From Minisyncoccota bacterium (GTDB lineage: Bacteria; Patescibacteriota; Microgenomatia; UBA1400; UBA12028), in NCBI GenBank assembly GCA_016211945.1, contig JACRHV010000003.1, positions 5,631 through 69,630 on the forward strand: DNA of 64,000 bases, read 5' to 3'. Under the pieces are notes generated by a model that saw nothing but the letters and a program-made list of their open reading frames with translations, made no database searches and was not told where the DNA came from. How positions within the stretch are numbered: the stretch's first letter is position 1; each line of letters begins with the position of its first letter. Of this stretch, positions 3,597 through 32,672 are shown in pieces. The position numbers were made by a program, and so were the translations under genes.

Positions 3597-5282
3597 ATGC
3601 GTTACTTCGTTTGCGTTGTATTTTTTTTCATCTTCTTTTATGCATCATCTCGTCTCCTTGCATTCACCATCGCCTCAGATCCACAGTATCTCGTCATGAA
3701 TTTTTCCGAGATCAATGAACTCAACTGGGCAGCTCCGGAACCACAATGGCAAACAGAAATTAAACCAAAAATACTCGACCAGCTTCACCAACTCCAACGT
3801 ACACTTCCACCCGGAACTTCACAAAGAAAATTGGCGTGGAGTACGCTCCAAGAATATATGAATGTTCCGCTTGACATCCCAAGTGAAACATCGTCGTATG
3901 TCATAAAAATGCGACGTATCCTGGAAATTGCAGAACAAGAAAACCTTCCAGTCTTCCTTCCACTCAACGGTTTTCAATGGTGGGACGAGTTGCCGGAGTT
4001 GTACAACTGGTGGGACCCCGACGGCACTCATACCCCCATAGTTTTCTTTACACGCCAACGTACACCAGACTTTAAAGACCGATTTATCCGCGGCTACAAT
4101 CCGGAAAACAAATGGAATGTTGAGTGGCAGTCACCAACACAACCCATGACGCTTAACTGGCGGAATTGGGGTGGGGGAGGGTTTCGACTTGCACCACCCC
4201 CCAACCTCTTCCCACATTCCCGCACAGCTCTCACCTATAGAAAAGTCCAAAAAGAGCGTTTTATCGCACTTATTACCGAACTTTCAAGCATTATAAACAG
4301 ATGGGAAAAAGAAGGAAGGGGTGATCTTTTTGCAGGTATAACCATTGGCACAGAAGTCTCATTGAACGCCTCCGTCACACCAAAAGACGAGTTTGAGCCG
4401 TACGGATTCCGATCCACACAAGATCTTCTTTGTTCCAAAGACAAACCAACATGCGCCATACCACCGGCACAACTCAGCCAGGCACGACAAAAAATAGTGT
4501 ACCGATATCTTCAAGATCTCGCACGAACCGCCACCCTTCTTGGCATTCCAAAACAGCGCATTTATACACACGTGTGGGGTGAAGTAAAACAGGGCGAGCC
4601 TAAATTTGAGAACTACGCACAGTCCGCATTCAATCCATATGCTCGACCAGGTATGAGTTTTTACGGATATGCAGAAGACCCATTTTCACTTCCCGTATGG
4701 AAAAACGAGATGGAACAACACGGCAATCCATCTTGGGGAGCAGTCGAATACTCCGCAGAAAAAACAGAACGTGTGTGGCAAAAAGGACTCACAAATATCT
4801 TTAACCCACCATCAACACCACCAGCAAAAATCGTCACCATCTATAACTGGACAGAGCACAAAGATACACCCGCGATAAAAGCAATCGCCACCATACTTCA
4901 AGACTATACTCCTCCCACGCAATGTTCTATTCCAGAAATTCTTCCCGAAACACAAAATTATTCCATCACTCAAACATTTTCATGGAATTACTTTCCAACA
5001 GAATCACTCGTACGTTTTTCGCCAACATTAGAATTCATCACAAGTCCCGGTCTTTTCCCAATTCCTCAAGAAAGCAATGTAAAAGAACTCGATGTGTTGA
5101 GCAAAAATACCACGATGTTTGATATAAAACCCGGCGTATATACCATCTCACTCAAGCTCACTGGCTGTGGTGGAAAACGTGTCAGCATATCAGAACCAAG
5201 AACGATCGTGATCCCTGTCCAACTCCCGCAAAATGATACGCCAGCGTGGGTACGATTCATCCTAGAACACAATGCTACGTAG
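3597..5282 (+). CDS. large secreted/membrane-anchored hypothetical protein (561 aa)
   Basis: N-terminal hydrophobic segment (FFFIFFYASSRLLAF); Trp/Pro-rich; no recognisable catalytic motif. Confidence 0.5.
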   Translation: MRYFVCVVFFFIFFYASSRLLAFTIASDPQYLVMNFSEINELNWAAPEPQWQTEIKPKILDQLHQLQRTLPPGTSQRKLAWSTLQEYMNVPLDIPSETSSYVIKMRRILEIAEQENLPVFLPLNGFQWWDELPELYNWWDPDGTHTPIVFFTRQRTPDFKDRFIRGYNPENKWNVEWQSPTQPMTLNWRNWGGGGFRLAPPPNLFPHSRTALTYRKVQKERFIALITELSSIINRWEKEGRGDLFAGITIGTEVSLNASVTPKDEFEPYGFRSTQDLLCSKDKPTCAIPPAQLSQARQKIVYRYLQDLARTATLLGIPKQRIYTHVWGEVKQGEPKFENYAQSAFNPYARPGMSFYGYAEDPFSLPVWKNEMEQHGNPSWGAVEYSAEKTERVWQKGLTNIFNPPSTPPAKIVTIYNWTEHKDTPAIKAIATILQDYTPPTQCSIPEILPETQNYSITQTFSWNYFPTESLVRFSPTLEFITSPGLFPIPQESNVKELDVLSKNTTMFDIKPGVYTISLKLTGCGGKRVSISEPRTIVIPVQLPQNDTPAWVRFILEHNAT

Positions 5283-5856
5283 CGTGATGTATAGCGCGCC
5301 ATTCCTCTTCAACATCTTGCCAAGGAAAAACAATACAGTCGTTCGTTATTCCCTTTTTTTCTGCTTCAGATCGGGATATCATTCGCCGTTCATTTCCTAA
5401 AACCCCATAAAAAGTTTGATCGGCATTGGGTAGTGGGAAAAGGGATTGATCGAGGTACGCCGTGGCAAAAGAAATTAAAGCCAGTGGAAATAATCGTCGT
5501 ACATCAGATATGACTTGGTTTGCCGTTGTTCCGGTAACGGTGTTTGTATCAACAACGAGAATATGACTTTTTTCTGGGAGTTCTATTTTGAGTGTTGGTG
5601 GTTCACAAATCTTCTTCAGGCCACGTTCTTCCTCATACTTGTATTGAAAAGGAAGCATTACGACGACATGCAGTTTTGATGCAAGATGCATGCCTGTTAT
5701 CGCGCCGCTTCTCAGTATTGGAACAACGAGATCAAATGATACTTCATGCTCGAGACAGTATGTTGATACGTTATCCGTTAGTACACGCAACACCTCGCCG
5801 AACTCGTCATACGTGATCTGGCGCAACTCATTTTTTTGTATCGTCTTTCCCATCAC
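5275..5856 (-). CDS. phosphoribosyltransferase-domain protein
   Basis: PRPP-binding motif 'HILVVDTNTVTGTTA'. Confidence 0.5.
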   Translation of the reverse strand: MMGKTIQKNELRQITYDEFGEVLRVLTDNVSTYCLEHEVSFDLVVPILRSGAITGMHLASKLHVVVMLPFQYKYEEERGLKKICEPPTLKIELPEKSHILVVDTNTVTGTTANQVISDVRRLFPLALISFATAYLDQSLFPLPNADQTFYGVLGNERRMISRSEAEKKGITNDCIVFPWQDVEEEWRAIHHAT

Positions 5857-6794
5857 TCCTCCTTCTTCCCACCATGGAACTTCTCATGCACCTTTCGCAG
5901 TTCTGGCCGTGTAATATGTGTATAAATCTGTGTCGTTGAAATATTTTTATGCCCCAGCATTTCTTGAACATCGCGCAGTCCCGCGCCGTTGATTAATAAA
6001 TCCGTTGCAAATGAGTGTCGTATCCCATGTGGTGAAATTTTAATCGGAAGATGCGCCTTGCGGCAGTACTTATCCACAATCCGCTGGACCGATCTCGTCG
6101 TTAGCCGCATCTCCTCGCCATCACTCGTCGCATCAGCCTTATTGCGACTGTATCGAATAAATACTGGCCGCCAAAAATCGTCGCGGCCATTCAGATATTT
6201 ATCGAGCCACTCCGCAGATTTTTCACTCAAAAACACCACGCGATGCTTCCGACCTTTTCCGATCACCCCAAACTCCCGCCGCTGTGTGTCCACCTGCTCA
6301 CGGTTCAAAGACACCACCTCACTCACACGAAGACCGGTGCTAAACATCAATTCCAGCATCGCCTTGTCCCGTAGGCCTGTTTTCGAGCTTAAGGCCGGTT
6401 GGCCGAGTAAACGCTCGATCTGCTCAAAGTTCAGAAATTTCATAGATCTGGACTCGCCCTTAGGAAGGTCGATTTTCTCCGGAGTGAGCACGGCAACGTC
6501 GTTCTTTATGAGCCATTTGAAGAGTGATCGGAGCGCGATGATGTGATATGCCTGTGTGGTTCTTGATAGGGTACGCTCATCCACACCCATATACTGTGAG
6601 AGATGTACACGATATTTTTTCAGCATCTGCAGATCAAAAAGCGTCATATCCTCGAGTTTTTGAAGATCCAACCACTCGCAAAATCGGTTGAGATAGTGTG
6701 TATAATCACGGATAGTGAGTTTGCTAAGGTTGCGCTCAACGTCGCAATGCTCGAGGAAATCCCTACAAAGTTCACGGGGATGTGTGCTTTTCAT
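5853..6794 (-). CDS. tyrosine-type site-specific recombinase (XerC/XerD-like integrase)
   Basis: C-terminal catalytic region 'HGIRHSFAT...LGHKNISTTQIYTH' (R-H-R-Y signature); 4-bp overlap with upstream PRTase gene. Confidence 0.8.
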   Translation of the reverse strand: MKSTHPRELCRDFLEHCDVERNLSKLTIRDYTHYLNRFCEWLDLQKLEDMTLFDLQMLKKYRVHLSQYMGVDERTLSRTTQAYHIIALRSLFKWLIKNDVAVLTPEKIDLPKGESRSMKFLNFEQIERLLGQPALSSKTGLRDKAMLELMFSTGLRVSEVVSLNREQVDTQRREFGVIGKGRKHRVVFLSEKSAEWLDKYLNGRDDFWRPVFIRYSRNKADATSDGEEMRLTTRSVQRIVDKYCRKAHLPIKISPHGIRHSFATDLLINGAGLRDVQEMLGHKNISTTQIYTHITRPELRKVHEKFHGGKKEE

Positions 6795-8200
6795 CTCAAA
6801 CTTTCCTCCCTCGAGTTATATCCTATAGTTTTTATTCTGCGGAGTTAGCAGTCTCATTATCTGAGTGCTAATACCCGAATATTTAGCAAAGGGTTGATTT
6901 ATCAATCCTTTTTACAGTAGCCCGAATGAAAGAACCATAATCATTTCCAGATGTAGGTGTGTGTATTACATATGCAAGTACATGTTTTATTCCATGCAAC
7001 ACCGTAATCATCCATTTCTATGCATTCTATCTTTCTGCGCTTCAAACAGTGTGACAGAGAATGGGGGATGTGTCAACATTATGCGACATAGTGGTGCGCT
7101 GACAATTACATTATGCGACATAGCGTGAAAAGCAATGAAACAGTAACACACGTCAGCAATGCAACAGCATATGCCACACATACAATTTGTGTTCAATATC
7201 TCTCCCAACTAGTTCGTCCTTCCTTCGTATTATTGCACAGCGTACTGGAATAAATGGGCGATGATGTATGCGGGTATACTTCGGTATTTCTGCAGGATAT
7301 GCGTGAACACCTGAGGTTGACTCGAGTAAGTTATTTCCGCATTCAGCAGTTCTAAAGCATCGTAATTGCGTTAATACTTTTCAAGCACTACGGCTTATGC
7401 TGTGCTGTCATCACGCCATAATGGTCTGTTTTTGGTCATCACAAATCTCGCGTGGAAAAAGAGCATACTCCTGCCCAACATACCTTCATTCCCAGGCTAA
7501 ATACCAGATGTGAAGGCCCTAGAATGCCCGATTTTCGGCAAGAAGGTGAGTCTGCTATACAATGTATCGTCATTTCCAGAGGTACATCCATCATTTTTAA
7601 AAAAAATGCACACAAAGTTTCGGGTTTCTATACAAACGCAAAAACAATGCATCAAAGAAAAAACAGGGAAGTGACAAAATAGGGTAATTGGCCGTAATTC
7701 ACCAAAGAAACAGAATGACAAACAATGCAAGAACGCGCATATGTACAAAAGACGCACTTCTCCGTTGTTCCTTTCATTACGTCGCAAAAGTATTATTGTG
7801 CGACACTATTGAAACAGCTCCACCACCATGAAGAAGAGTGGACCATTCCCATTGAGACCACCCAACTATCAAAACAACATGTATGCTGCTAAATGCCGAT
7901 TCCATCACCCGCTTTTGTGTTCTACGGCTCTTTTCTCTCCTCCTTCAACTTCGCGCCCCCAGAGTGACATTCGGGTTTTTTCCGCACCACACCTTTTATG
8001 AGTTATCCACAATTGCTCATAGATCAATCTTTTTTCTTGTTTCTTATCTTAAGCGGTCTTCCCAACTTTGTGCTACCATTCTTGTGAAAAGTATCCTATA
8101 ATTATGTGAAAAGTGATGATATCAAACTATATCATCCTCTCTAGTACGCAGAGGAAACTCCCCTCCTTCCCCCACTACCCCACACGCATACAAAACGTCA

Positions 8201-23508: not shown

Positions 23509-24816
23509 CTATCCTCTCTGTTCCATCCCGTAAAACTTAATGCGATCACCCTTAAAGAACAGGTCTATACTACGTAACGGTCCATTGCGGTGTTTTGCAA
23601 TGGTAAGCTTTACATGCTCCGGCGCCTCGTCTTCTTCTCGATACAAAAACATCACAACGTCCGAGTCCTGCTCTATCGAACCACTCTCGCGTAAATCCGA
23701 CAGTTGTGGCTGTTTTGTTCCTCTGTTTTCTACTCCACGGTTGAGCTGCGACAACGCTAAAACGGGAACCTTCAACTCGCGCGCTAAATTCTTTAGGCCC
23801 TGCGAAATTTCGGACACTTCCTGCACCCGATTGTCTTTTGTGTACCCCTGCATCAACTGTAAATAATCAACCACAATCAAGTCCAATCCATGTTCTGCCA
23901 TCAACCGTCTTGCTTTAGTCCGCACCTCCAAGATAGACTGGCCGGGAGTGTCATCAAAATACAGCGGAGCCTCGGCGAGTACACCCATCGCCTCAGAAAG
24001 TTTTTCAAAATCATCCTCACTAAGCCGCCCTGTTTTCAATCTCCACGCATCAATGTCGGCCTGTTGCACCAAGAGACGATCCACCATTTCCTCGGTGCTC
24101 ATCTCCAGCGCAAAATACCCAACCTTCATCCCTTTCACCACCGCGACATGTTGGGCGATAGAAAGAGAAAATGCCGTTTTTCCAATACCGGGACGCGCCG
24201 CCAACACAATGAGGTTAGACTTCTGCATACCAGCCAAAGTATTGTCCAAATCCAAAAATCCGGTTGAAACTCCGCGCAATCCATCACTGTTTTTGTGGAG
24301 TTCATCAAGTCGATCAAAACTTTCTGACAATGCTTTTTTCAAAGAAACAAATGATCGCCGCATCTGTTTCTGTGATAAGCTGAACACTTGTTTTTCCGTT
24401 TTGTCCAAAATCTGGTCTGTACTTAACCCGGGATCAAACGCCATTTCACCCAACTCTCCTGAGAGTGAGATGAGAGAACGTTTAATCGATAAATCGCGTA
24501 CGATCTTGGCGTATTGAACCACATGGGCAGCTGTAGGAACGCTGGAAGCAAGTTTGGCTAGATATGCAGACCCGCCAATTTCGGTAAACCGCTTCATTTT
24601 CTTCAGTTGATTGGTCAACGTCACCACATCAATGGGCTCGCGCTCATCGAAGAGCTTCAGCATTGCCTCATAAATATCAGCATGCGCGGTTTTATAGAAA
24701 TTGGCTGATTCTAATTTATCCGCAACTTGAACAATCGCTTCTCTATCGAGCAGAATAGCCCCTAAAACGCTTTCTTCTGCTTCAAGATTATGTGGAGGAG
24801 TTTTGAGATCTGCCAT
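23509..24816 (-). CDS. dnaB: replicative DNA helicase
   Basis: 'LEAEESVLGAIL' N-terminus, Walker A 'ARPGIGKTAF', typical DnaB. Confidence 0.9.
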   Translation of the reverse strand: MADLKTPPHNLEAEESVLGAILLDREAIVQVADKLESANFYKTAHADIYEAMLKLFDEREPIDVVTLTNQLKKMKRFTEIGGSAYLAKLASSVPTAAHVVQYAKIVRDLSIKRSLISLSGELGEMAFDPGLSTDQILDKTEKQVFSLSQKQMRRSFVSLKKALSESFDRLDELHKNSDGLRGVSTGFLDLDNTLAGMQKSNLIVLAARPGIGKTAFSLSIAQHVAVVKGMKVGYFALEMSTEEMVDRLLVQQADIDAWRLKTGRLSEDDFEKLSEAMGVLAEAPLYFDDTPGQSILEVRTKARRLMAEHGLDLIVVDYLQLMQGYTKDNRVQEVSEISQGLKNLARELKVPVLALSQLNRGVENRGTKQPQLSDLRESGSIEQDSDVVMFLYREEDEAPEHVKLTIAKHRNGPLRSIDLFFKGDRIKFYGMEQRG

Positions 24817-26849: not shown

Positions 26850-26914
26850 CGTGTTCTTTCTCAGTAATCCAGATGTATTTGCGCATTGTTGACACCCTGT
26901 GATATAGTATCTCC

Positions 26915-27178
26915 CACAAGTAAACTGTATAAAGCGCTAACTGGAGTCACGATCCAGGAGCTGCTCGCCAAAATGCGAGACGGAAGCTTCACCGTAAAAC
27001 CAAGCAGTCGATGTCGCTCAAGCGGAGTCGGCCCAAGAGCTTCTCAGAAAAATGCTGAGAAGAACAAAGGATGGGACCGCGGGAGGTCCTTTTTTATTGC
27101 GCAAATGTTTTGCGCAGGATGCCTCTCGTTCCTTACAGATCACAGTTGCTGTGGTGTGTAGCGAACGGGAGGTTTTTT
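26915..27178 (+). promoter_or_regulatory. T-box riboswitch leader (predicted tRNA-His specific)
   Basis: 27067-27086: helix A1 AAGGA, 7-nt bulge UGGGACC, helix A2 GCGGGAGG, matching the T-box consensus AGGGUGGNACCGCGG. A2/A1 3' strands CCUCUCGU-UCCUU (27122-27134) overlap the 5' arm of terminator CCUCUCGUUCC...GGAACGGGAGG-UUUUUU (27122-27178). Upstream hairpin CUGGA-GUCACGA-UCCAG (26941-26958) carries CAC. Promoter-like TTGCGC/TATAGT at 26879-26908. Confidence 0.7.
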
Positions 27179-27214
27179 GTTAGAAAAATAAAAGAGGAAA
27201 AAAGAAAGGAATAT

Positions 27215-28732
27215 ATGAACATCCAACTTACAGGAAAAGATTTAACGATTGATCTTGTAAAAAAAGTCGCCAGAGATAGAGAGAAAATTTCTCTTTCTCA
27301 GAAAGCTCGCAAAAATATAGAAAAAGGCCGAGGTATTTTACAAGCTTACGTTGATCGTGGAGAAAAGATTTATGGGGTAACAACCGGGTTTGGAGATTTC
27401 TCTAAGGTTTTCATATCCTCAAATGACGCCGCGCAACTTCAAGTGAATCTTATTCGCAGTCACAATGCAGGTGTTGGCAATCCAGTTCCAGAGGATGTAG
27501 TTCGAGCGACTATGCTTGCTCGTACAAATTACTTGGCTAGTGGAATGTCTGGCTGTCGACCAATAATTGTTGAAACACTCGTTGAAGCCTTAAACAAAAA
27601 CCTCTATCCTTTTATTCCAAGAAAAGGTTCTGTTGGTGCGAGTGGAGATCTTGCTCCTTTGGCTGCAATGGCTGCTTGTCTTATGGGTGAAGGATTTGCC
27701 ATTGTTGATGGGAAAAAAGTGCCTTCATTGCAAGTTCTGCAAGAAAAGAGAATTAAACCAATCAAACTTTCATTCAAAGAGGGACTCTCCCTTATTAATG
27801 GCGATACGCTCATGGTAGGATACGCCACCCTACTGGTATATGACGCAATTCAACTTGCAAAACTCTCAGATATTGCTATCAGCATGACAATCGAGAGTAT
27901 TGTTGGCGTTATGGAGGCTTTCGACGAACGCCTGCAACTCTCTCGAGGTTTTTTTGGTCAAGTTGCTTCTGCCAGAAATATTCGAGCGCTCACTGCTGGA
28001 AGCAAAATACTCTCTGGAGAAAAAAGACGGGTTCAAGATAGCTATGTTATTCGATGTGGTCCGGTTATTTTGGGTGCATCACGCGAAGCAATTTCGTTTG
28101 TTCGGCGTCAAACGGAGATCGAACTTAATGGATCGTGCGACAACCCACTTGTTTTCTTAAAAGATGACGCTGTTTTAGCTGGTGGAAACTTCCACGGCCA
28201 GCCACTCGCTCTTCCGCTCGATTTTCTCAAGATTGCGGTATCGGAATTTGCAAGCTCCTCTGAACGTCGAATGGAACGCATGATTAATAAAACATACTCG
28301 GGAATGCCTCCATTTCTTATTGAAAATGGTGGATTGAATTCCGGTTTTATGGTCCCGCAATATACCGCTGCTGGACTCATTAACTTAAATAAGGGGCTTT
28401 CGTGGCCGAATAGTGTTGATTCAACGCCTCTTTGTGCGGGTCAAGAAGATCACGTTTCCATGGGAACAAATTCTGCACTTACAGCATATGAAGTTGTTCA
28501 AAATACACAGTATGTCTTGGCAATTGAGTTGCTGATTGCTGCGCAAGCATTAGAGTTTTCCGAGAAATCTCCAAGCTTAGTCATACAAAAACTGAAACGG
28601 TTCATTCGAACAAAGATTCCAAAGGTTACACAAGACGTTGCTATGAGTCCACTCATCGAGCAAATGAAGAACTGGATTGCAGACGAATCGTTTGTTCGTA
28701 TGACAGAAAAAAATGTTGGAGTATTGGCATGA
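27215..28732 (+). CDS. hutH: histidine ammonia-lyase family (MIO-dependent) enzyme
   Basis: 'GSVGASGDLAPLA' MIO-forming Ala-Ser-Gly motif; 505 aa; start taken at ATG 27215 after AAAGAGGAAAAAAGAAAGGA. Confidence 0.8.
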   Translation: MNIQLTGKDLTIDLVKKVARDREKISLSQKARKNIEKGRGILQAYVDRGEKIYGVTTGFGDFSKVFISSNDAAQLQVNLIRSHNAGVGNPVPEDVVRATMLARTNYLASGMSGCRPIIVETLVEALNKNLYPFIPRKGSVGASGDLAPLAAMAACLMGEGFAIVDGKKVPSLQVLQEKRIKPIKLSFKEGLSLINGDTLMVGYATLLVYDAIQLAKLSDIAISMTIESIVGVMEAFDERLQLSRGFFGQVASARNIRALTAGSKILSGEKRRVQDSYVIRCGPVILGASREAISFVRRQTEIELNGSCDNPLVFLKDDAVLAGGNFHGQPLALPLDFLKIAVSEFASSSERRMERMINKTYSGMPPFLIENGGLNSGFMVPQYTAAGLINLNKGLSWPNSVDSTPLCAGQEDHVSMGTNSALTAYEVVQNTQYVLAIELLIAAQALEFSEKSPSLVIQKLKRFIRTKIPKVTQDVAMSPLIEQMKNWIADESFVRMTEKNVGVLA

Positions 28733-29769
28733 AAAAATATAAAGTTTTTTGCTATCAGTGTGGAAAAGAATACCAAGATCAATGGTGGTTATGTCCTGCG
28801 TGCGGGGGAAGTTTAGAGGTTGCGTATGCACAAACATTGGATACACCTCAATTCCCCACTAATATATTTATTGAAAGTTTAGGTGAGGGAAATACTCCAC
28901 TTATTCGTCTTTCAATACTTTCAAAAAAATATTTCTGTGACTTATGGGCAAAATGTGAAATGCAAAATCCAACGGGGTCTTTTAAGGATCGTGGATCGGT
29001 TATTGAGATAGCAAAAGCGTTGGAACTTGGTATGTCAGGTATTGTATGTGCTTCGACTGGAAACATGGCAGCTAGTCTTGCTGCCTATGCTACGCGAATT
29101 GGATTACGATGTATTGTCGTTATCCCAGTAAAAACACCAATTTCAAAACTCCAACAAGCAGTTATTTGCGGAGCAGAACTTATAAAAGTTCAGGGAGCGT
29201 ATGATGAATGCGTCAAGGTTGCAAAAAAAATTGCTCAACAAAAAAAATATTTTCTTTGTGGCGACTATCTTCTACGAAGAGAGGGTCAAAAAACACTTGG
29301 ATGGGAGCTCGCAAATTCTTGTTTTGACGCGTTTATTATCCCCGTCGGAAATGGAAATATAGGTCTTGCCGTAGCAAAAGGGATTTCGGAATTTATTAGG
29401 GAAAAAAATCTACCTCAATTTGTTGGTGTTCAATCAACACAAGTCAATCCTCTTGAAAAAGCTTGGGTGACACGCACAGAAATCTTTCCTGTAAAAAATA
29501 GAAATACTATTGCTTCAGCGTGCAATGTGGGAAATCCGCTTGATGGTGCGTTTACACTCGATGTTGTGAAAAAGACACGTGGTTGTTTTGTTGCAGCAAC
29601 AGATAAGGAAATTCTTACTTCACAAGATTTTCTTGCAAAAAATGAGGGTCTCTATGTTGAAGCAACCGCCGCGTCAACTTTGGCTGGATTTATAAAAATA
29701 CGGAAGCAATTTAGAAATAAAAAAGTCGTACTTATTCTGACTGGTTCGGGACTCAAGGAAAGGAAATAA
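28729..29769 (+). CDS. threonine synthase-like PLP-dependent (fold type II) enzyme with N-terminal C4 zinc ribbon
   Basis: 'NPTGSFKDRG' PLP-Lys motif; N-terminal CYQCG...CPACGG; 4-bp overlap with the upstream gene. Confidence 0.7.
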   Translation: MKKYKVFCYQCGKEYQDQWWLCPACGGSLEVAYAQTLDTPQFPTNIFIESLGEGNTPLIRLSILSKKYFCDLWAKCEMQNPTGSFKDRGSVIEIAKALELGMSGIVCASTGNMAASLAAYATRIGLRCIVVIPVKTPISKLQQAVICGAELIKVQGAYDECVKVAKKIAQQKKYFLCGDYLLRREGQKTLGWELANSCFDAFIIPVGNGNIGLAVAKGISEFIREKNLPQFVGVQSTQVNPLEKAWVTRTEIFPVKNRNTIASACNVGNPLDGAFTLDVVKKTRGCFVAATDKEILTSQDFLAKNEGLYVEATAASTLAGFIKIRKQFRNKKVVLILTGSGLKERK

Positions 29770-29774
29770 GACAT

Positions 29775-30155
29775 ATGGAAAGGATTATCGTAGCAAAAGG
29801 GCGTGGAAGTGAGAACTGGCAAAAGGAATTATCGAACGATCCCATAGATCGTATATGGAGATTATTAGCAAGCCTTTGGTGGAAACCAGAAAAACGAGAT
29901 AATTCACCGGAGAATATTGAATTCGTCATTACATCTATTGATGACATTATTCAAGGGTTTTCAGAAAAAACTTTATCAAATAGAAGTGAAATGTCTATTG
30001 CAGAAGCATTGCGAAACGGTTCAAAAGTTGACATCTGTTTTGAGTTTTGTAAAACAGGAGAGAGGTGTGGGAATGTATTTATTAGTACAGGATATGAAAC
30101 TCTTTGCTTAAAATGTTCGGGTGAACGGAGTAATAATAAATGGACATCAGAATGA
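29775..30155 (+). CDS. hypothetical protein with C-terminal Cys-rich segment
   Basis: CFEFCKTGERCGN...CLKCSGE. Confidence 0.4.
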   Translation: MERIIVAKGRGSENWQKELSNDPIDRIWRLLASLWWKPEKRDNSPENIEFVITSIDDIIQGFSEKTLSNRSEMSIAEALRNGSKVDICFEFCKTGERCGNVFISTGYETLCLKCSGERSNNKWTSE

Positions 30156-30343
30156 AAGACATATTCTTATCAGACAGTGAACGAGGAATCGACCGAACAA
30201 AAATAGCGGCAAATGATTGTGGTCGTTTACAAAACGCGCCCATTCGTGGAAAGATTCCTCGTTGGTGGCTAGAAGAAGGTACTACAGAACAAATAAAGGA
30301 ATGGAAAAGACAACTTGAAGCTGGTGAAGCAACTCTAGAGTAA
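30140..30343 (+). CDS. small hypothetical protein (67 aa)
   Basis: ORF track; overlaps the previous gene by 16 nt. Confidence 0.3.
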   Translation: MDIRMKDIFLSDSERGIDRTKIAANDCGRLQNAPIRGKIPRWWLEEGTTEQIKEWKRQLEAGEATLE

Positions 30344-30380
30344 TAGGAAAAAATTCGATACAATAGCCAAAGGAGATTTT

Positions 30381-31589
30381 ATGTCCAACACCATACCACA
30401 AACACTCAAAGGCTTCCGTGATTTCCTGCCAGAACAAGCAAGAAAACGGCAGTGGCTTCGTGACAAAATTATTGAGGTATTTGAGCTTTGGGGATTCGAC
30501 CCACTTGAAACTCCCACGCTCGAACCGCTGGAGCTTTTTGCTGGTCAAATTGGCGAGGATGAAAAACTCTTTTTCAAGTTCAAGGATTCTGGTGACCGTG
30601 ACGTCGCGTTGCGATATGATCAGACCGTCCCCACCTGCCGAGTGGTTGCGCAGTACTATCAACAACTCACGATGCCGTTCAAGCGGTATCAAATTCAACC
30701 CGCTTTCCGCGCGGAAAAACCGCAAAAAGGTCGGTACCGCGAGTTTGTGCAGTGCGACGCCGATATCTTTGGTGTGGACTCCCCTCTCGCTGACGCGGAG
30801 GTTATCGCACTTGGTTTGGATATCTATCGTCGTCTTGGATTTCCAAAGGCAAAGGTCCTAATCAATGACCGACAACTCCTCAAAGACCTTCCGTACGAGG
30901 CAATTGTCGCAATCGATAAGCTCAAAAAAATCGGCAAAGACGGCGTGATTGAGGAAATGAAAGCAAAAGGAATCGAGGAAAAGACGGCACGCGGCTATCT
31001 CGACACCGTGCTTACGTTGAAGCCAAATGAAACTATTCAAATCATCTTGAATTACCTCAAAAACCAAGGATTCGAGTCTGATTGGTACGAGTTTGATCCC
31101 ACCATTGCGCGCTCATTTTCATACTCATCAGGTCCAATTTGGGAAATTGAGATCCCGGGATTAACTGGTTCGGTTTTGGGAGGTGAACGATTCGATAATC
31201 TTGTAGAAAAAATCGCTGGTTTTCGCGTTGCGGGAACGGGATTTGGACTCGGATTTGATCGTACCTTAGAGGCTGCGGAAGCGTTCAATCTCATTCCCCT
31301 TTCTGCGACAAGCGCACAAGTGTTAGTGACAATTTATTCTCCAGAATATGTGAGTGAAAGCGTAGAAACCACCTTATTTTTGAGGAAAAACGGCGTGCGG
31401 ACTGAGATATATCCAGATGACACGGAAAAACTTGCGAAACAACTGAAGTATGCGAGTAAAAAAGAAATTCCATATGTCATTATTCTCGGTTCTGACGAAA
31501 AAGCACAAAATGTGGTTCAACTCAAAAATATGAAGACTAGCGAACAGAAAAAAATGACAATTGAACAGGTAGTAAAGTTATTTGTGTAA
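30381..31589 (+). CDS. hisS: histidine--tRNA ligase
   Basis: 'LKGFRDFLPE', class II motifs, C-terminal anticodon-binding domain. Confidence 0.9.
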   Translation: MSNTIPQTLKGFRDFLPEQARKRQWLRDKIIEVFELWGFDPLETPTLEPLELFAGQIGEDEKLFFKFKDSGDRDVALRYDQTVPTCRVVAQYYQQLTMPFKRYQIQPAFRAEKPQKGRYREFVQCDADIFGVDSPLADAEVIALGLDIYRRLGFPKAKVLINDRQLLKDLPYEAIVAIDKLKKIGKDGVIEEMKAKGIEEKTARGYLDTVLTLKPNETIQIILNYLKNQGFESDWYEFDPTIARSFSYSSGPIWEIEIPGLTGSVLGGERFDNLVEKIAGFRVAGTGFGLGFDRTLEAAEAFNLIPLSATSAQVLVTIYSPEYVSESVETTLFLRKNGVRTEIYPDDTEKLAKQLKYASKKEIPYVIILGSDEKAQNVVQLKNMKTSEQKKMTIEQVVKLFV

Positions 31590-31685
31590 CTTTTTTGTCA
31601 ACATTTTTTTCAAGATTCACGTGTACGCTTATTTTCCTCAGATCCCCTTCCTTTCCTCAATTCTTTTCCGTACACTATACCCACA

Positions 31686-32648
31686 ATGAATCGTCTGCCC
31701 GCAAAAACAGTTATTTTTGGAGTAACGGCCGCACTCATTAATGTATTGTGTTGGGGCGCCGCACCCGCAATTATTAAATTTGGTCTTGAAACTGTATCGC
31801 CGACCGTTTTCCTCTACTATCGATTCGTTCTTGTTATTGCACTCACAACTCCTTTTATGTATGCGTTTCGCAAACACATTGCTTCGTCGGTAAAAACTCC
31901 TCAGCATCTTGTTACATTGCTTTTAATCGGCATCCTCACAAACCCATTAAATCTTGGCATTCTTTTTCTCGGTCTTCATTACACAACGTCTGCGTCTGCG
32001 GCTATACTCGCGAGCGTCTCCCCTCTTTTTATCATGGCAGCCAGTGCACTTTTTTTAAAAGAGCGTATTACAAAGTTCGAGCTGCTTGGTGCTGCAATTG
32101 CAACACTAGGAACCTGCATTATCATCCTTGATACGCCAACACAATCAGGAGCAGCGAACCCTCTCCTTGGCAATCTCCTTATCTTTACCTACAACATCGT
32201 CTGGACCGCAGGAGCGCTGTTGATGAAAAAATACGCAACAACATATCATCCGTTCTTATTTGGATACACGGGATGGTTTACCGGCATGATTCTCTTCGGC
32301 CTCATCGTCATGATCACTGAACCATATTTTTTCTTCCGCCCACTCATGCTTACACAACTTCCACAGGCTTTCTTCTCCATTCTCTACATGGCTGTTTTCG
32401 GCTCTATTATCGGATTTACCTCATATCAAGTTGCACAGAAACATCTTTCTGCTTCGAAGGTAAGTATTTTTACCTACCTTCAACCCATCGTTGTTCTTCC
32501 CCTCTCTGTCTTTTGGTTAAAGGAAAAATTTGGTGTTCAGTTCATTCTTGGGGCGATGATCTTGGCTATCGGCGTATGCATTGCTGAGATGCATCAGCGA
32601 TCGAGATTGCGGACACTTCATCATAAACCACACAAAAAGGCGGCATAA
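31686..32648 (+). CDS. DMT-superfamily (EamA-like) transporter
   Basis: 10 TM helices, duplicated EamA halves. Confidence 0.6.
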   Translation: MNRLPAKTVIFGVTAALINVLCWGAAPAIIKFGLETVSPTVFLYYRFVLVIALTTPFMYAFRKHIASSVKTPQHLVTLLLIGILTNPLNLGILFLGLHYTTSASAAILASVSPLFIMAASALFLKERITKFELLGAAIATLGTCIIILDTPTQSGAANPLLGNLLIFTYNIVWTAGALLMKKYATTYHPFLFGYTGWFTGMILFGLIVMITEPYFFFRPLMLTQLPQAFFSILYMAVFGSIIGFTSYQVAQKHLSASKVSIFTYLQPIVVLPLSVFWLKEKFGVQFILGAMILAIGVCIAEMHQRSRLRTLHHKPHKKAA

Positions 32649-32672
32649 GTAACGCCGCCCTTCTGTTTTAAA
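32636..32672. terminator. bidirectional rho-independent terminator between convergent genes
   Basis: GGCGGC-ATAAGTAAC-GCCGCC flanked by A5 on one side and CTTCTGTTTT on the other; the stop of the + strand gene lies in the loop. Confidence 0.6.

Follow-up and report, generated by a model that had tools for sequence, protein, structure and literature searches.

The hut operons described so far respond to histidine or urocanate as inducer (HutP, HutC). Elsewhere, genes under the control of sensors of amino-acid limitation are those for synthesis, import or charging of the amino acid concerned, and bacteria of the Candidate Phyla Radiation (CPR) are assumed to be amino-acid auxotrophs living off partners. 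In this study we analyzed a 64-kb stretch of DNA from a Minisyncoccota bacterium of the Microgenomatia (contig JACRHV010000003.1, positions 5,631 to 69,630; the whole stretch is called the window below), in which a T-box riboswitch specific for histidine stands immediately before an operon encoding a histidine ammonia-lyase (HAL, HutH), a pyridoxal 5'-phosphate (PLP) enzyme similar to threonine synthase (ThrC) and histidyl-tRNA synthetase (HisRS, gene hisS). The components all come from known families; what is new is their wiring, the conserved pairing of the two enzymes and their likely function.

Described systems resemble parts of this arrangement. T-boxes with a short Stem I and the specifier in its apical loop have been described, with a C-ending specifier followed by a 3' purine and a UGGN bulge next to helix A1 as criteria; ultrashort Stem I is linked mainly to translational T-boxes, and the distal platform is called essential in transcriptional ones (PMC7583486). 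HisR, a member of the YerC/YecD family, represses genes of histidine biosynthesis and uptake, and histidine stimulates its DNA binding (PMC9413887). One paper reports a hisR paralogue adjoining hutH in Oscillibacter. In the literature we found nothing linking hutH to a T-box, a histidine attenuator or a ThrC-like partner, nothing on T-boxes in CPR bacteria or on HAL in Patescibacteria, and nothing relevant on the reverse reaction or equilibrium of HAL or on ThrC-derived deaminases.

A histidine T-box with an ultrashort Stem I

The original prediction, read from the letters of the window, had placed a histidine-specific T-box ahead of the operon. It is indeed there, at 26928-27178, just upstream of the interval 27215-31589 to which the prediction was assigned, and consists of the following parts:

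26936 to 26961, + strand: ultrashort Stem I with a GCU/AGC base, a CUGGA/UCCAG helix and the 7-nt apical loop GUCACGA (fold and Rfam alignment)
26964 to 27039, + strand: middle domain with a Stem II-like element (CUCGC/GCGAG), a Stem IIA/B-like, F-box-like element (ACGG..CCGUAA) and an extra hairpin (Rfam alignment and fold)
27040 to 27062, + strand: Stem III (CUUCUCAG / CUGAGAAG; Rfam alignment and fold)
27067 to 27134, + strand: antiterminator, with helix A1 formed by AAGGA (27067-71) and UCCUU (27130-34) and helix A2 by CGGGAGG (27080-86) and CCUCUCG (27122-28)
27121 to 27178, + strand: intrinsic terminator, GCCUCUCGUUC with GAACGGGAGGU and then U6, its 5' arm common with the antiterminator

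The specifier is the histidine codon CAC (26948-26950) in the apical loop, with a purine 3' of the codon. Stem I measures about 26 nt and lacks the long-Stem-I features (K-turn, S-turn and distal double T-loop platform). The 7-nt bulge UGGGACC (27072-78) carries UGGG at its 5' edge, GCG follows AAGGA-UGGGACC, and this core, AAGGA-UGGGACC-GCGGGAGG, pairs with CCUCUCG-U-UCCUU (27122-27134) around an antiterminator loop that itself contains a hairpin. Since the strand 27121-27134 is common to both folds, antiterminator and terminator are mutually exclusive. For nascent RNA ending at 27140, the enforced antiterminator reaches -37.0 kcal/mol against a minimum free energy of -37.4, while in the full-length leader the terminator fold reaches -67.7 against -50.6 kcal/mol, the terminator hairpin alone accounting for -33.5. 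The combination of an ultrashort Stem I with an intrinsic terminator is unusual.

In a local scan with the Rfam model RF00230, positions 26928-27094 matched at 34.2 bits (E 7.6e-6), far below the gathering threshold of 93 bits because some 75 Stem I positions are absent and appear as deletions. Neither the gathering-threshold scan of the window nor a whole-window scan by E-value reported a T-box; the match is seen in the local scan only. These low scores, together with the missing distal platform, would fit a chance resemblance or a dead element ahead of a constitutive operon, a reading we consider highly improbable in view of a related locus. Here and below, labels such as L125 denote related loci compared with the window. 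In L125 there is a second, independent match to RF00230 (37.3 bits, E 1.2e-6, also below 93 bits), and compensatory substitutions separate the two leaders in three helices: the Stem I helix is CCGGA/UCCGG (U-A to C-G) around an identical loop, the extra hairpin of the middle domain changes from CGCU/AGCG to CGCC/GGCG, and Stem III, CUUUUCGA / UCGAAAAG in L125, has three pairs altered on both strands. Between the two leaders nothing has changed in the specifier loop, the T-box core or either terminator arm, while the loops diverge, and the 3' half of a third leader, in L123, follows the same pattern, with antiterminator strands and terminator arms kept and a different loop. The antiterminator and terminator also compete in the canonical way, which again speaks against a dead element.

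The tRNA-His genes of L123/L125 and L119 have the anticodon GUG, an encoded G-1 and C73. The CAC specifier and the UGGG bulge, which is complementary to the C73-CCA end, thus both point to tRNA-His. No tRNA-His gene was found within the 64-kb window. We take the T-box to be genuine and histidine-specific, and it is predicted to sense uncharged tRNA-His.

One other candidate for the T-box terminator, a GGGACC..GGUCCU hairpin with a T run (27073-27090), was dropped after folding and comparison with L123 and L125. With UUUUUAUU after it, this hairpin (27073-27096) shares sequence with the T-box bulge; in the absence of tRNA it might tie up UGGG or serve as a weak early terminator.

The HAL-PLP module and its histidine sensors

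On the + strand between 26.9 and 32.7 kb the order is a leader of about 290 nt, HAL, the PLP enzyme gene, a 126-aa open reading frame (ORF), a 67-aa ORF, hisS and eamA. The genes with recognizable products are:

27215 to 28732, + strand: HAL, a HutH-type enzyme of the methylidene-imidazolone (MIO) family, 505 aa (TIGR01225, Pfam)
28729 to 29769, + strand: ThrC-derived fold-type II PLP enzyme with an N-terminal C4 zinc ribbon, 346 aa, probably a threonine/serine ammonia-lyase
30381 to 31589, + strand: hisS, histidyl-tRNA synthetase with anticodon-binding domain
31686 to 32648, + strand: eamA, an EamA/DMT-family transporter (Pfam EamA, E 2e-41)

The identities that the original prediction gave to the first three of these were upheld by profile searches. 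HAL carries the predicted MIO motif GSVGASGDLAPLA and matches Pfam Lyase_aromatic (E 9e-171) as well as the hutH equivalog TIGR01225 (564.9 bits, cutoff 539.15) and NF006871 (587.9 bits, cutoff 524). The ORF at 28729-29769 has the NPTGSFKDRG motif and an N-terminal CxxC...CxxC ribbon of the C4 type, matches Pfam PALP (E 2e-69) and overlaps HAL by 4 bp, its ATG sitting on the HAL stop codon (ATGA). hisS scores 345 bits with TIGR00442 (cutoff 287) and contains the Pfam domains tRNA-synt_His and HGTP_anticodon.

Related loci were collected by exact-protein look-ups and a clade-specific metagenome scan, which gave about 25 distinct loci. A search with the full PLP alignment was abandoned because its generic motifs NPTGSFKD and CASTGNMA drew canonical ThrCs; the clade-specific sub-alignment worked on metagenome contigs. 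In all loci with enough upstream DNA, except L107, HAL stands directly 5' of the PLP gene, and the HAL-PLP pair is a conserved module of the Microgenomatia, present in about 25 loci. A TrpR-family gene lies upstream of the pair in about 17 loci and hisS downstream in about 12; eamA follows hisS in six, and the order hisS-eamA is seen in L089, L104, L107, L116 and L119. One of the related loci, L125, encodes a HAL 91% identical to that of the window and has a common synteny of DnaB, metallo-beta-lactamase-type hydrolase and immunoglobulin-domain genes.

The T-box is found in the window, L123 and L125 only, and other leaders are of a type with a short ORF rich in histidine codons. We read 18 distinct related leaders, most of which contain a short ORF with at least two consecutive histidine codons: HHHH in L001, L090, L116 and L124, HHH in L003 and HH in nine further distinct loci, with H-x-H in L103 and L117 and a single histidine in L106. 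The stop codon falls on or just past GCGGGG, a copy of the 3' arm of a CCCCGC..GCGGGG terminator with a U run, and this copy at the stop codon occurs together with the downstream terminator in 12 of the 14 tabulated leaders; the scan found no simple terminator behind the histidine-run ORFs of L116 and L119. Because the frame over GCGGGG varies among loci, conservation is seen in the RNA rather than in the peptide. Stalling of the ribosome at the histidine codons would mask region 1 and leave region 2 free, and 2:3 pairing would then allow read-through. The window has no such leader ORF. In L103 (about 4950-5010) and L127 (570-700) a TrpR-like ORF ends in ..NHSH.. with a terminator behind it, as though a leader peptide had been fused to the C-terminus of the regulator; these HSH-ending ORFs were tried as attenuators and set aside, their geometry not fitting simple attenuation.

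The third type of sensor is the TrpR-family protein. That of L001 matches the YerC/YecD model TIGR02531 (52 bits, cutoff 42.2), and TATTAAC..GTTAATA palindromes overlap the promoters (-35/-10) in about 15 loci. By analogy with HisR (PMC9413887), histidine may be the effector of this CPR protein. No HisR/YerC-type homologue was found in the window by tblastn. A tRNA-His gene lies between sensor and HAL in L125 (6888-6959) and L119 (4954-5029), an arrangement that would place tRNA-His under the control of its own sensor in a positive feedback. A tRNA-His(GUG) gene stands in the same place in L123 (210-282), and the window is without such an insert.

One simple possibility is that the sensors are aimed at hisS (and tRNA-His), with the HAL-PLP pair merely lying between leader and hisS and having an unrelated role. 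There are well-known cases of synthetase genes under T-box or leader-peptide control (PMC9413887, PMC7583486), and both the dozen or so loci with a downstream hisS and the two leaders containing tRNA-His would agree with it. We nevertheless find it distinctly improbable that the pair is a passenger. The leader is always directly 5' of HAL, or of a tRNA-His or HisG-like gene that is itself followed by HAL; it is kept in at least ten loci that have no hisS within 5 kb downstream (L001, L004, L090, L099, L100, L102, L105, L106, L109 and L118); and the HisR-type gene goes with HAL, not with hisS.

Judged by their sequences, three sensors of histidine limitation (T-box, leader peptide and HisR-type repressor) converge on the HAL-PLP pair. 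The paradox pointed out in the original prediction, a starvation sensor placed on a histidase, is thereby not only confirmed but stronger, since it extends over about 25 loci with attenuators and a HisR-type repressor elsewhere. The sensor has changed while induction by histidine limitation has persisted, which makes an accidental or read-through T-box less credible and favors a role in histidine supply. Since regulation of this type is typical of supply genes, histidine supply is the simplest function consistent with it, and the module probably serves to supply histidine when charged tRNA-His is scarce.

The remaining features of the operon in the window are:

26900 to 26908, + strand: possible extended -10 promoter (TGATATAGT), by sequence reading
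29775 to 30155, + strand: conserved small protein of 126 aa with four invariant Cys near the C-terminus and the ending KWTSE
30140 to 30343, + strand: ORF of 67 aa with one Cys, doubtful as a gene, inside a window-specific insertion of about 150 nt
32632 to 32666: strong hairpin of 15 pairs between the convergent eamA and a minus-strand small heat-shock-like gene, called on the - strand by the terminator scan

The putative -10 element TGATATAGT aligns with TACAAT in L125; a TTGACA at 26889-26894 is spaced too near to act as its -35. Five tightly packed + strand genes had been predicted, two of them for small Cys-rich proteins. The packing holds, and so does the first small protein: L125 and L086 have counterpart ORFs at this position with 56-59% identity, and the four Cys are invariant. 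The protein of the window has no Pfam or NCBIfam match and is a predicted Zn-binding protein. The 67-aa ORF does not hold up as a second Cys-rich protein: it is not present in L125 and L123, where the 126-aa ORF is followed by hisS after about 70 nt. The conserved cluster has instead a further gene, eamA, as its sixth. The terminator scan of the + strand from 27200 to 32600 gave no convincing site, its sole match being a weak 6-bp stem with a poor T tail within HAL (28413-28427). The hairpin after eamA is the likely end of the operon.

A non-coding block just 5' of hisS (CTCTAGAGTAATAG..AATTCGATACAATA.C.AAAGGA; window 30320-30380, L125 9990-10017) is conserved, while the sequence before it is not; possible roles are those of an internal promoter (TACAAT) and a processing site. 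In the flanking synteny, DnaB of L125 (1619-4225, 868 aa) contains an intein with a LAGLIDADG endonuclease, which DnaB of the window (23509-24816, 435 aa) does not have.

The two enzymes and the direction of the reaction

The PLP enzyme is the less ordinary of the pair in sequence. The database record of the exact protein is named "threonine synthase", and the nearest solved structures are ThrCs at 36-38% identity; a zinc ribbon like its own is found in archaeal ThrCs too. Its score with TIGR00260 is marginal (172.1 bits, cutoff 167.1), and all narrower ThrC models fall far under their cutoffs. An AlphaFold2 model (pLDDT 91) retrieved ThrC first in Foldseek, then TdcB, IlvA and serine racemase, and gave no clue to the substrate. 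More informative are residues T88, N154, S155, R160 and N188 of Thermus thermophilus ThrC, which we take to line the pocket for the phosphate of O-phosphohomoserine; the list reportedly goes back to Omi et al. 2003. In 28 members of the CPR clade, T88 is invariantly replaced by M113, N154 by G178 and S155 by D179, while R160 and N188 are kept. At the level of motifs, STGNT becomes STGNM and NSVNPxR becomes LCGDYxLR in the window and (L/F)xGDYxxR in the clade. As controls we used ThrC-family genes from other genomes, namely the matches listed from a genome-contig scan with the full PLP alignment (32-43% identity). The canonical STGNT and NS.NP are kept in all four solved ThrCs and, among the matches listed, in 25 of the 28 controls; the three exceptions are L030, which has the GDY motif, and L042 and L060, which have STGNL and no match to the second motif. 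The PLP enzyme of the window is, on these substitutions, not a canonical threonine synthase, and its predicted substrate is probably other than an O-phospho amino acid.

In a search of 1.8 billion representatives the CPR clade formed three clusters at 501-553 bits, followed by a gap down to 347 bits and then by a broader family with STGNM and GDY, often fused to a C-terminal LeuA-type regulatory domain, some members of which pass the NCBIfam 'threonine synthase' model PRK08197. The neighborhoods of this broader family are suggestive. RidA overlaps the PLP gene in L130-132 (gene 5001-6266 in L130); in L133 the order is ilvD..RidA, the PLP enzyme fused to a LeuA-type regulatory domain (5001-6845) and ilvE; and in L134 a PLP/LeuA_dimer fusion (794-2656) heads ilvB-ilvN-ilvC. 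In the CPR clade itself, L106 and L109 have RidA downstream of the PLP gene. The association with RidA and ilv genes is thus a property of relatives of the PLP enzyme and not of the protein of the window itself. Taken together, RidA, the ilv neighborhoods and the lost phosphate residues lead us to read the PLP enzyme of the window, by analogy, as probably a ThrC-derived threonine/serine ammonia-lyase, and the broader STGNM/GDY family has the look of a threonine deaminase of ThrC descent, so far undescribed, that stands in for IlvA. Given the GDY motif changes and the IlvA-like context, the expected reaction would be deamination of an unphosphorylated amino acid.

A deaminase is a source of ammonia, and such a partner fits the reverse addition of ammonia to urocanate. 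It is possible, at somewhat less than an even chance, that HAL aminates urocanate with ammonia from the PLP partner while HisRS pulls the product. At the T-box, uncharged tRNA-His would pair through its GUG anticodon with the apical CAC and through its C73-CCA end with the UGGG bulge, and its binding would stabilize the antiterminator against the terminator at 27121-27178. In the proposed mechanism HAL would run in the amination direction, from urocanate and NH3 to L-histidine, with NH3 supplied locally by the translationally coupled PLP enzyme acting as a threonine/serine deaminase and its release sped up by RidA where RidA is in the operon. The co-induced HisRS (with tRNA-His) would drain histidine from the equilibrium at very low free histidine, EamA may carry urocanate or histidine, and the peptidases of related operons may release histidine from peptides. 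In its most complete form, a two-enzyme "histidine synthase" of the Microgenomatia in which a ThrC-derived deaminase feeds NH3 to HutH, scavenged urocanate becomes L-histidine and three sensors are joined to a HisRS/tRNA-His coupling, the proposal is somewhat unlikely.

Several findings weigh against running HAL in this direction. The HAL of the window is, by sequence, a bona fide HutH. Inspection of its selectivity residues, proposed along with the original prediction of an anabolic or salvage role, turned out unfavorable to that role: when aligned to the Pseudomonas putida HAL (1GKM/1B8F), Y53, S-H83, the A-S-G MIO triad, N195, Q277, Y280, R283, F329 and E414, which we take to be the catalytic and imidazole-binding residues, are all identical, and the protein belongs with HutH. 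It therefore looks ordinary and bears no mark of an aminating enzyme that we could recognize in its sequence. The HAL equilibrium favors deamination, with a K of molar order, and net amination needs free histidine at or below micromolar levels with millimolar urocanate and NH4+, or else channelling of NH3; histidine starvation is a low-histidine condition of the kind that net amination would need. A hutU gene, moreover, lies in the histidine-attenuated operons of L097, L106, L109/L110 and L112, and its product is a true HutU (TIGR01228, 837 bits). We found no paper supporting a HAL-PLP pathway. Of the anabolic or salvage role, then, the conservation of the sensors and the deaminase-like partner speak in favor, and the placement of HAL in the HutH clade and hutU in four related operons do not.

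These same observations are the basis of a catabolic or homeostatic explanation, in which a normal HutH and a threonine/serine deaminase form, along with co-expressed hisS, transporter and peptidases, a unit for histidine homeostasis. HAL could be a high-Km overflow valve during starvation-induced uptake and peptide breakdown, or the two deaminases could harvest carbon and ammonia. Besides the complete active site, the HutH equivalog score and hutU, this agrees with the M20, M24 and M29 peptidases and the EamA transporter of related operons, and with both enzymes being ammonia-lyases by family. We rate it as unlikely, if a serious contender. Inducing a histidine-consuming enzyme by the lack of charged tRNA-His would be self-defeating, and this induction is kept through all three types of control, also in loci without hisS. 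Urocanate would be a dead end in most loci: hutU was not found in the 64-kb window, nor in most related loci, and hutI and hutG were not seen in the loci with annotated downstream genes.

The distribution of the two genes also differs. About 100 clusters at 50-91% identity make up the deep CPR clade of HAL, with clostridial HutH next at about 46-48% and with Pacebacteria, Roizmanbacteria, Levybacteria and Gottesmanbacteria as the names where given; HAL is ancient in the group. The CPR hutU genes fall into one small cluster whose identity to archaeal and planctomycete genes is 70-78%, which suggests a recent transfer into one CPR sub-lineage. The evidence of hutU against histidine supply is softened accordingly, hutU being probably a recent acquisition in a group where HAL is old.

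Other genes of the related operons are more variable. They include M20, M24 and M29 peptidases, two aminotransferases, a HisRS-like protein of 422 aa, a weakly HisG-like protein and a methyltransferase, and in L097, L106, L109/110 and L112 either RidA or parts of a set made up of a phosphoenolpyruvate (PEP)-utiliser-domain protein, an alpha/beta hydrolase and hutU. The "HisG" of L001 (30 against 76 bits) and the "HisZ-like" protein of L118 (26 against 272 bits) fall far below their cutoffs and were not counted as histidine biosynthesis. Such variety could mean that HAL, the PLP enzyme and a variable small protein make or modify some other compound derived from histidine or urocanate, or that they act on a histidine analogue, for example a natural HisRS inhibitor that raises uncharged tRNA-His. 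Behind the PLP gene most loci carry a small ORF, in several with GE[FH]GDT or GEGxGAP, and the accessory genes differ from locus to locus (aminotransferases, the 422-aa HisRS-like protein with M20, methyltransferase, PEP-utiliser protein, a second MIO enzyme in L104). Another product is quite unlikely all the same, considering that the imidazole- and carboxylate-binding residues of HAL are those of true histidases, that no biosynthetic scaffold genes are conserved with the pair, and that HAL and the PLP enzyme are each other's sole invariant partners.

Some of these accessory genes deserve mention on their own. The second MIO enzyme, in L104 (744-2291), is divergent (30-34% identical to the HALs) and lies after the PLP gene and a small ORF, 5' of hisS-eamA. 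The short ORFs just after the PLP gene are poorly conserved, some with an N-terminal (T/G)ERI(I/L) besides the motifs above, and may represent a rapidly evolving third component or a small partner protein:

L103, 7509 to 7706
L095, 542 to 766
L098, 2342 to 2500
L104, 502 to 621
L092, 1012 onward
L003, 7038 to 7244
L001, 7035 to 7292

In L106 (7937-9918), L109 (4023-6023) and L097 (2171-4050) a protein consisting only of the PEP-utiliser mobile (phosphohistidine) domain is accompanied by an alpha/beta hydrolase; the two sit where hutI and hutG would be expected and are fused in L109. Downstream of the PLP gene, L118 (7542-8810), L091 (935-2188) and L108 (1327-2373) encode a protein of 350-420 aa weakly similar to the HisRS/HisZ catalytic core, next to an M20 peptidase in L118 and L091; it could be a HisZ-like sensor or an amino-acid ligase.

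Whichever direction HAL runs in, a whole CPR class keeps a "degradative" histidase and a rebuilt threonine-synthase homologue under control of the biosynthesis or uptake type. If histidine is made from urocanate, this would be a new salvage pathway and a new amino-acid route in presumed auxotrophs, MIO lyases would act anabolically in vivo with the first physiological reverse use of histidase, and hundreds of CPR annotations as "hutH" and "thrC" would have to be re-read. Even if the module is catabolic, it offers one operon in which a T-box and a leader-peptide attenuator plus HisR stand in for each other with the terminator logic preserved, the coupling of an ultrashort-Stem-I T-box to an intrinsic terminator, and a ThrC-derived family of candidate threonine deaminases in ilv operons.

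Comparison with known systems

Among T-boxes, the element of the window is closest to the short-Stem-I class of RF00230, the actinobacterial ileS leaders. It shares with them a 7-nt bulge starting with UGGN beside A1, a C-ending specifier plus purine in the apical loop, Stem II/IIA-B-like elements and Stem III, and an antiterminator that competes with a downstream helix. Much of its distance from RF00230 is that of the missing Stem I positions, which include the distal platform for the tRNA elbow. It differs from known T-boxes in belonging to a CPR bacterium, in controlling hutH and in using an intrinsic terminator with an ultrashort Stem I.

The leaders of the relatives resemble his, trp and pheST leader attenuation in their short ORF with two to four histidine codons and U-run terminator, and classical attenuators in the 1:2, 2:3 and 3:4 pairings with a stop codon on region 2; the window itself uses a T-box in place of this attenuator. 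Like Escherichia coli trp and Firmicutes HisR (PMC9413887), they have a YerC/HisR-family gene and a palindromic operator over the promoter, but the operator consensus (TATTAACnnGTTAATA) is unlike the published HisR and TrpR motifs. In contrast to classical his attenuation, the genes regulated are hutH and a ThrC-derived enzyme rather than those of histidine biosynthesis or uptake.

Compared with the Hut pathway (P. putida HutH, PDB 1B8F/1GKM, with HutU), the HAL of the window is a HutH orthologue by profile models and active-site residues, and hutU adjoins the module in four related loci. The CPR module departs from Hut operons in its predicted induction by histidine limitation and in its obligatory ThrC-like partner. 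That partner has the fold-type II architecture of ThrC (T. thermophilus 1UIM, Bacillus subtilis 6CGQ) at the identity given above, retains the PLP lysine and the equivalents of R160 and N188 and has a zinc ribbon resembling that of archaeal ThrCs; it differs in having STGNM instead of STGNT and (L/F)xGDYxxR instead of NSVNPxR. As for IlvA, members of the GDY family take its place in ilv operons and pair with RidA. Finally, the proposed logic is like that of two-subunit amidotransferases, in that an NH3-producing enzyme would be translationally coupled to one that could use NH3. The components are unrelated, being a PLP deaminase and a MIO lyase, and the likeness lies in the proposed logic only.

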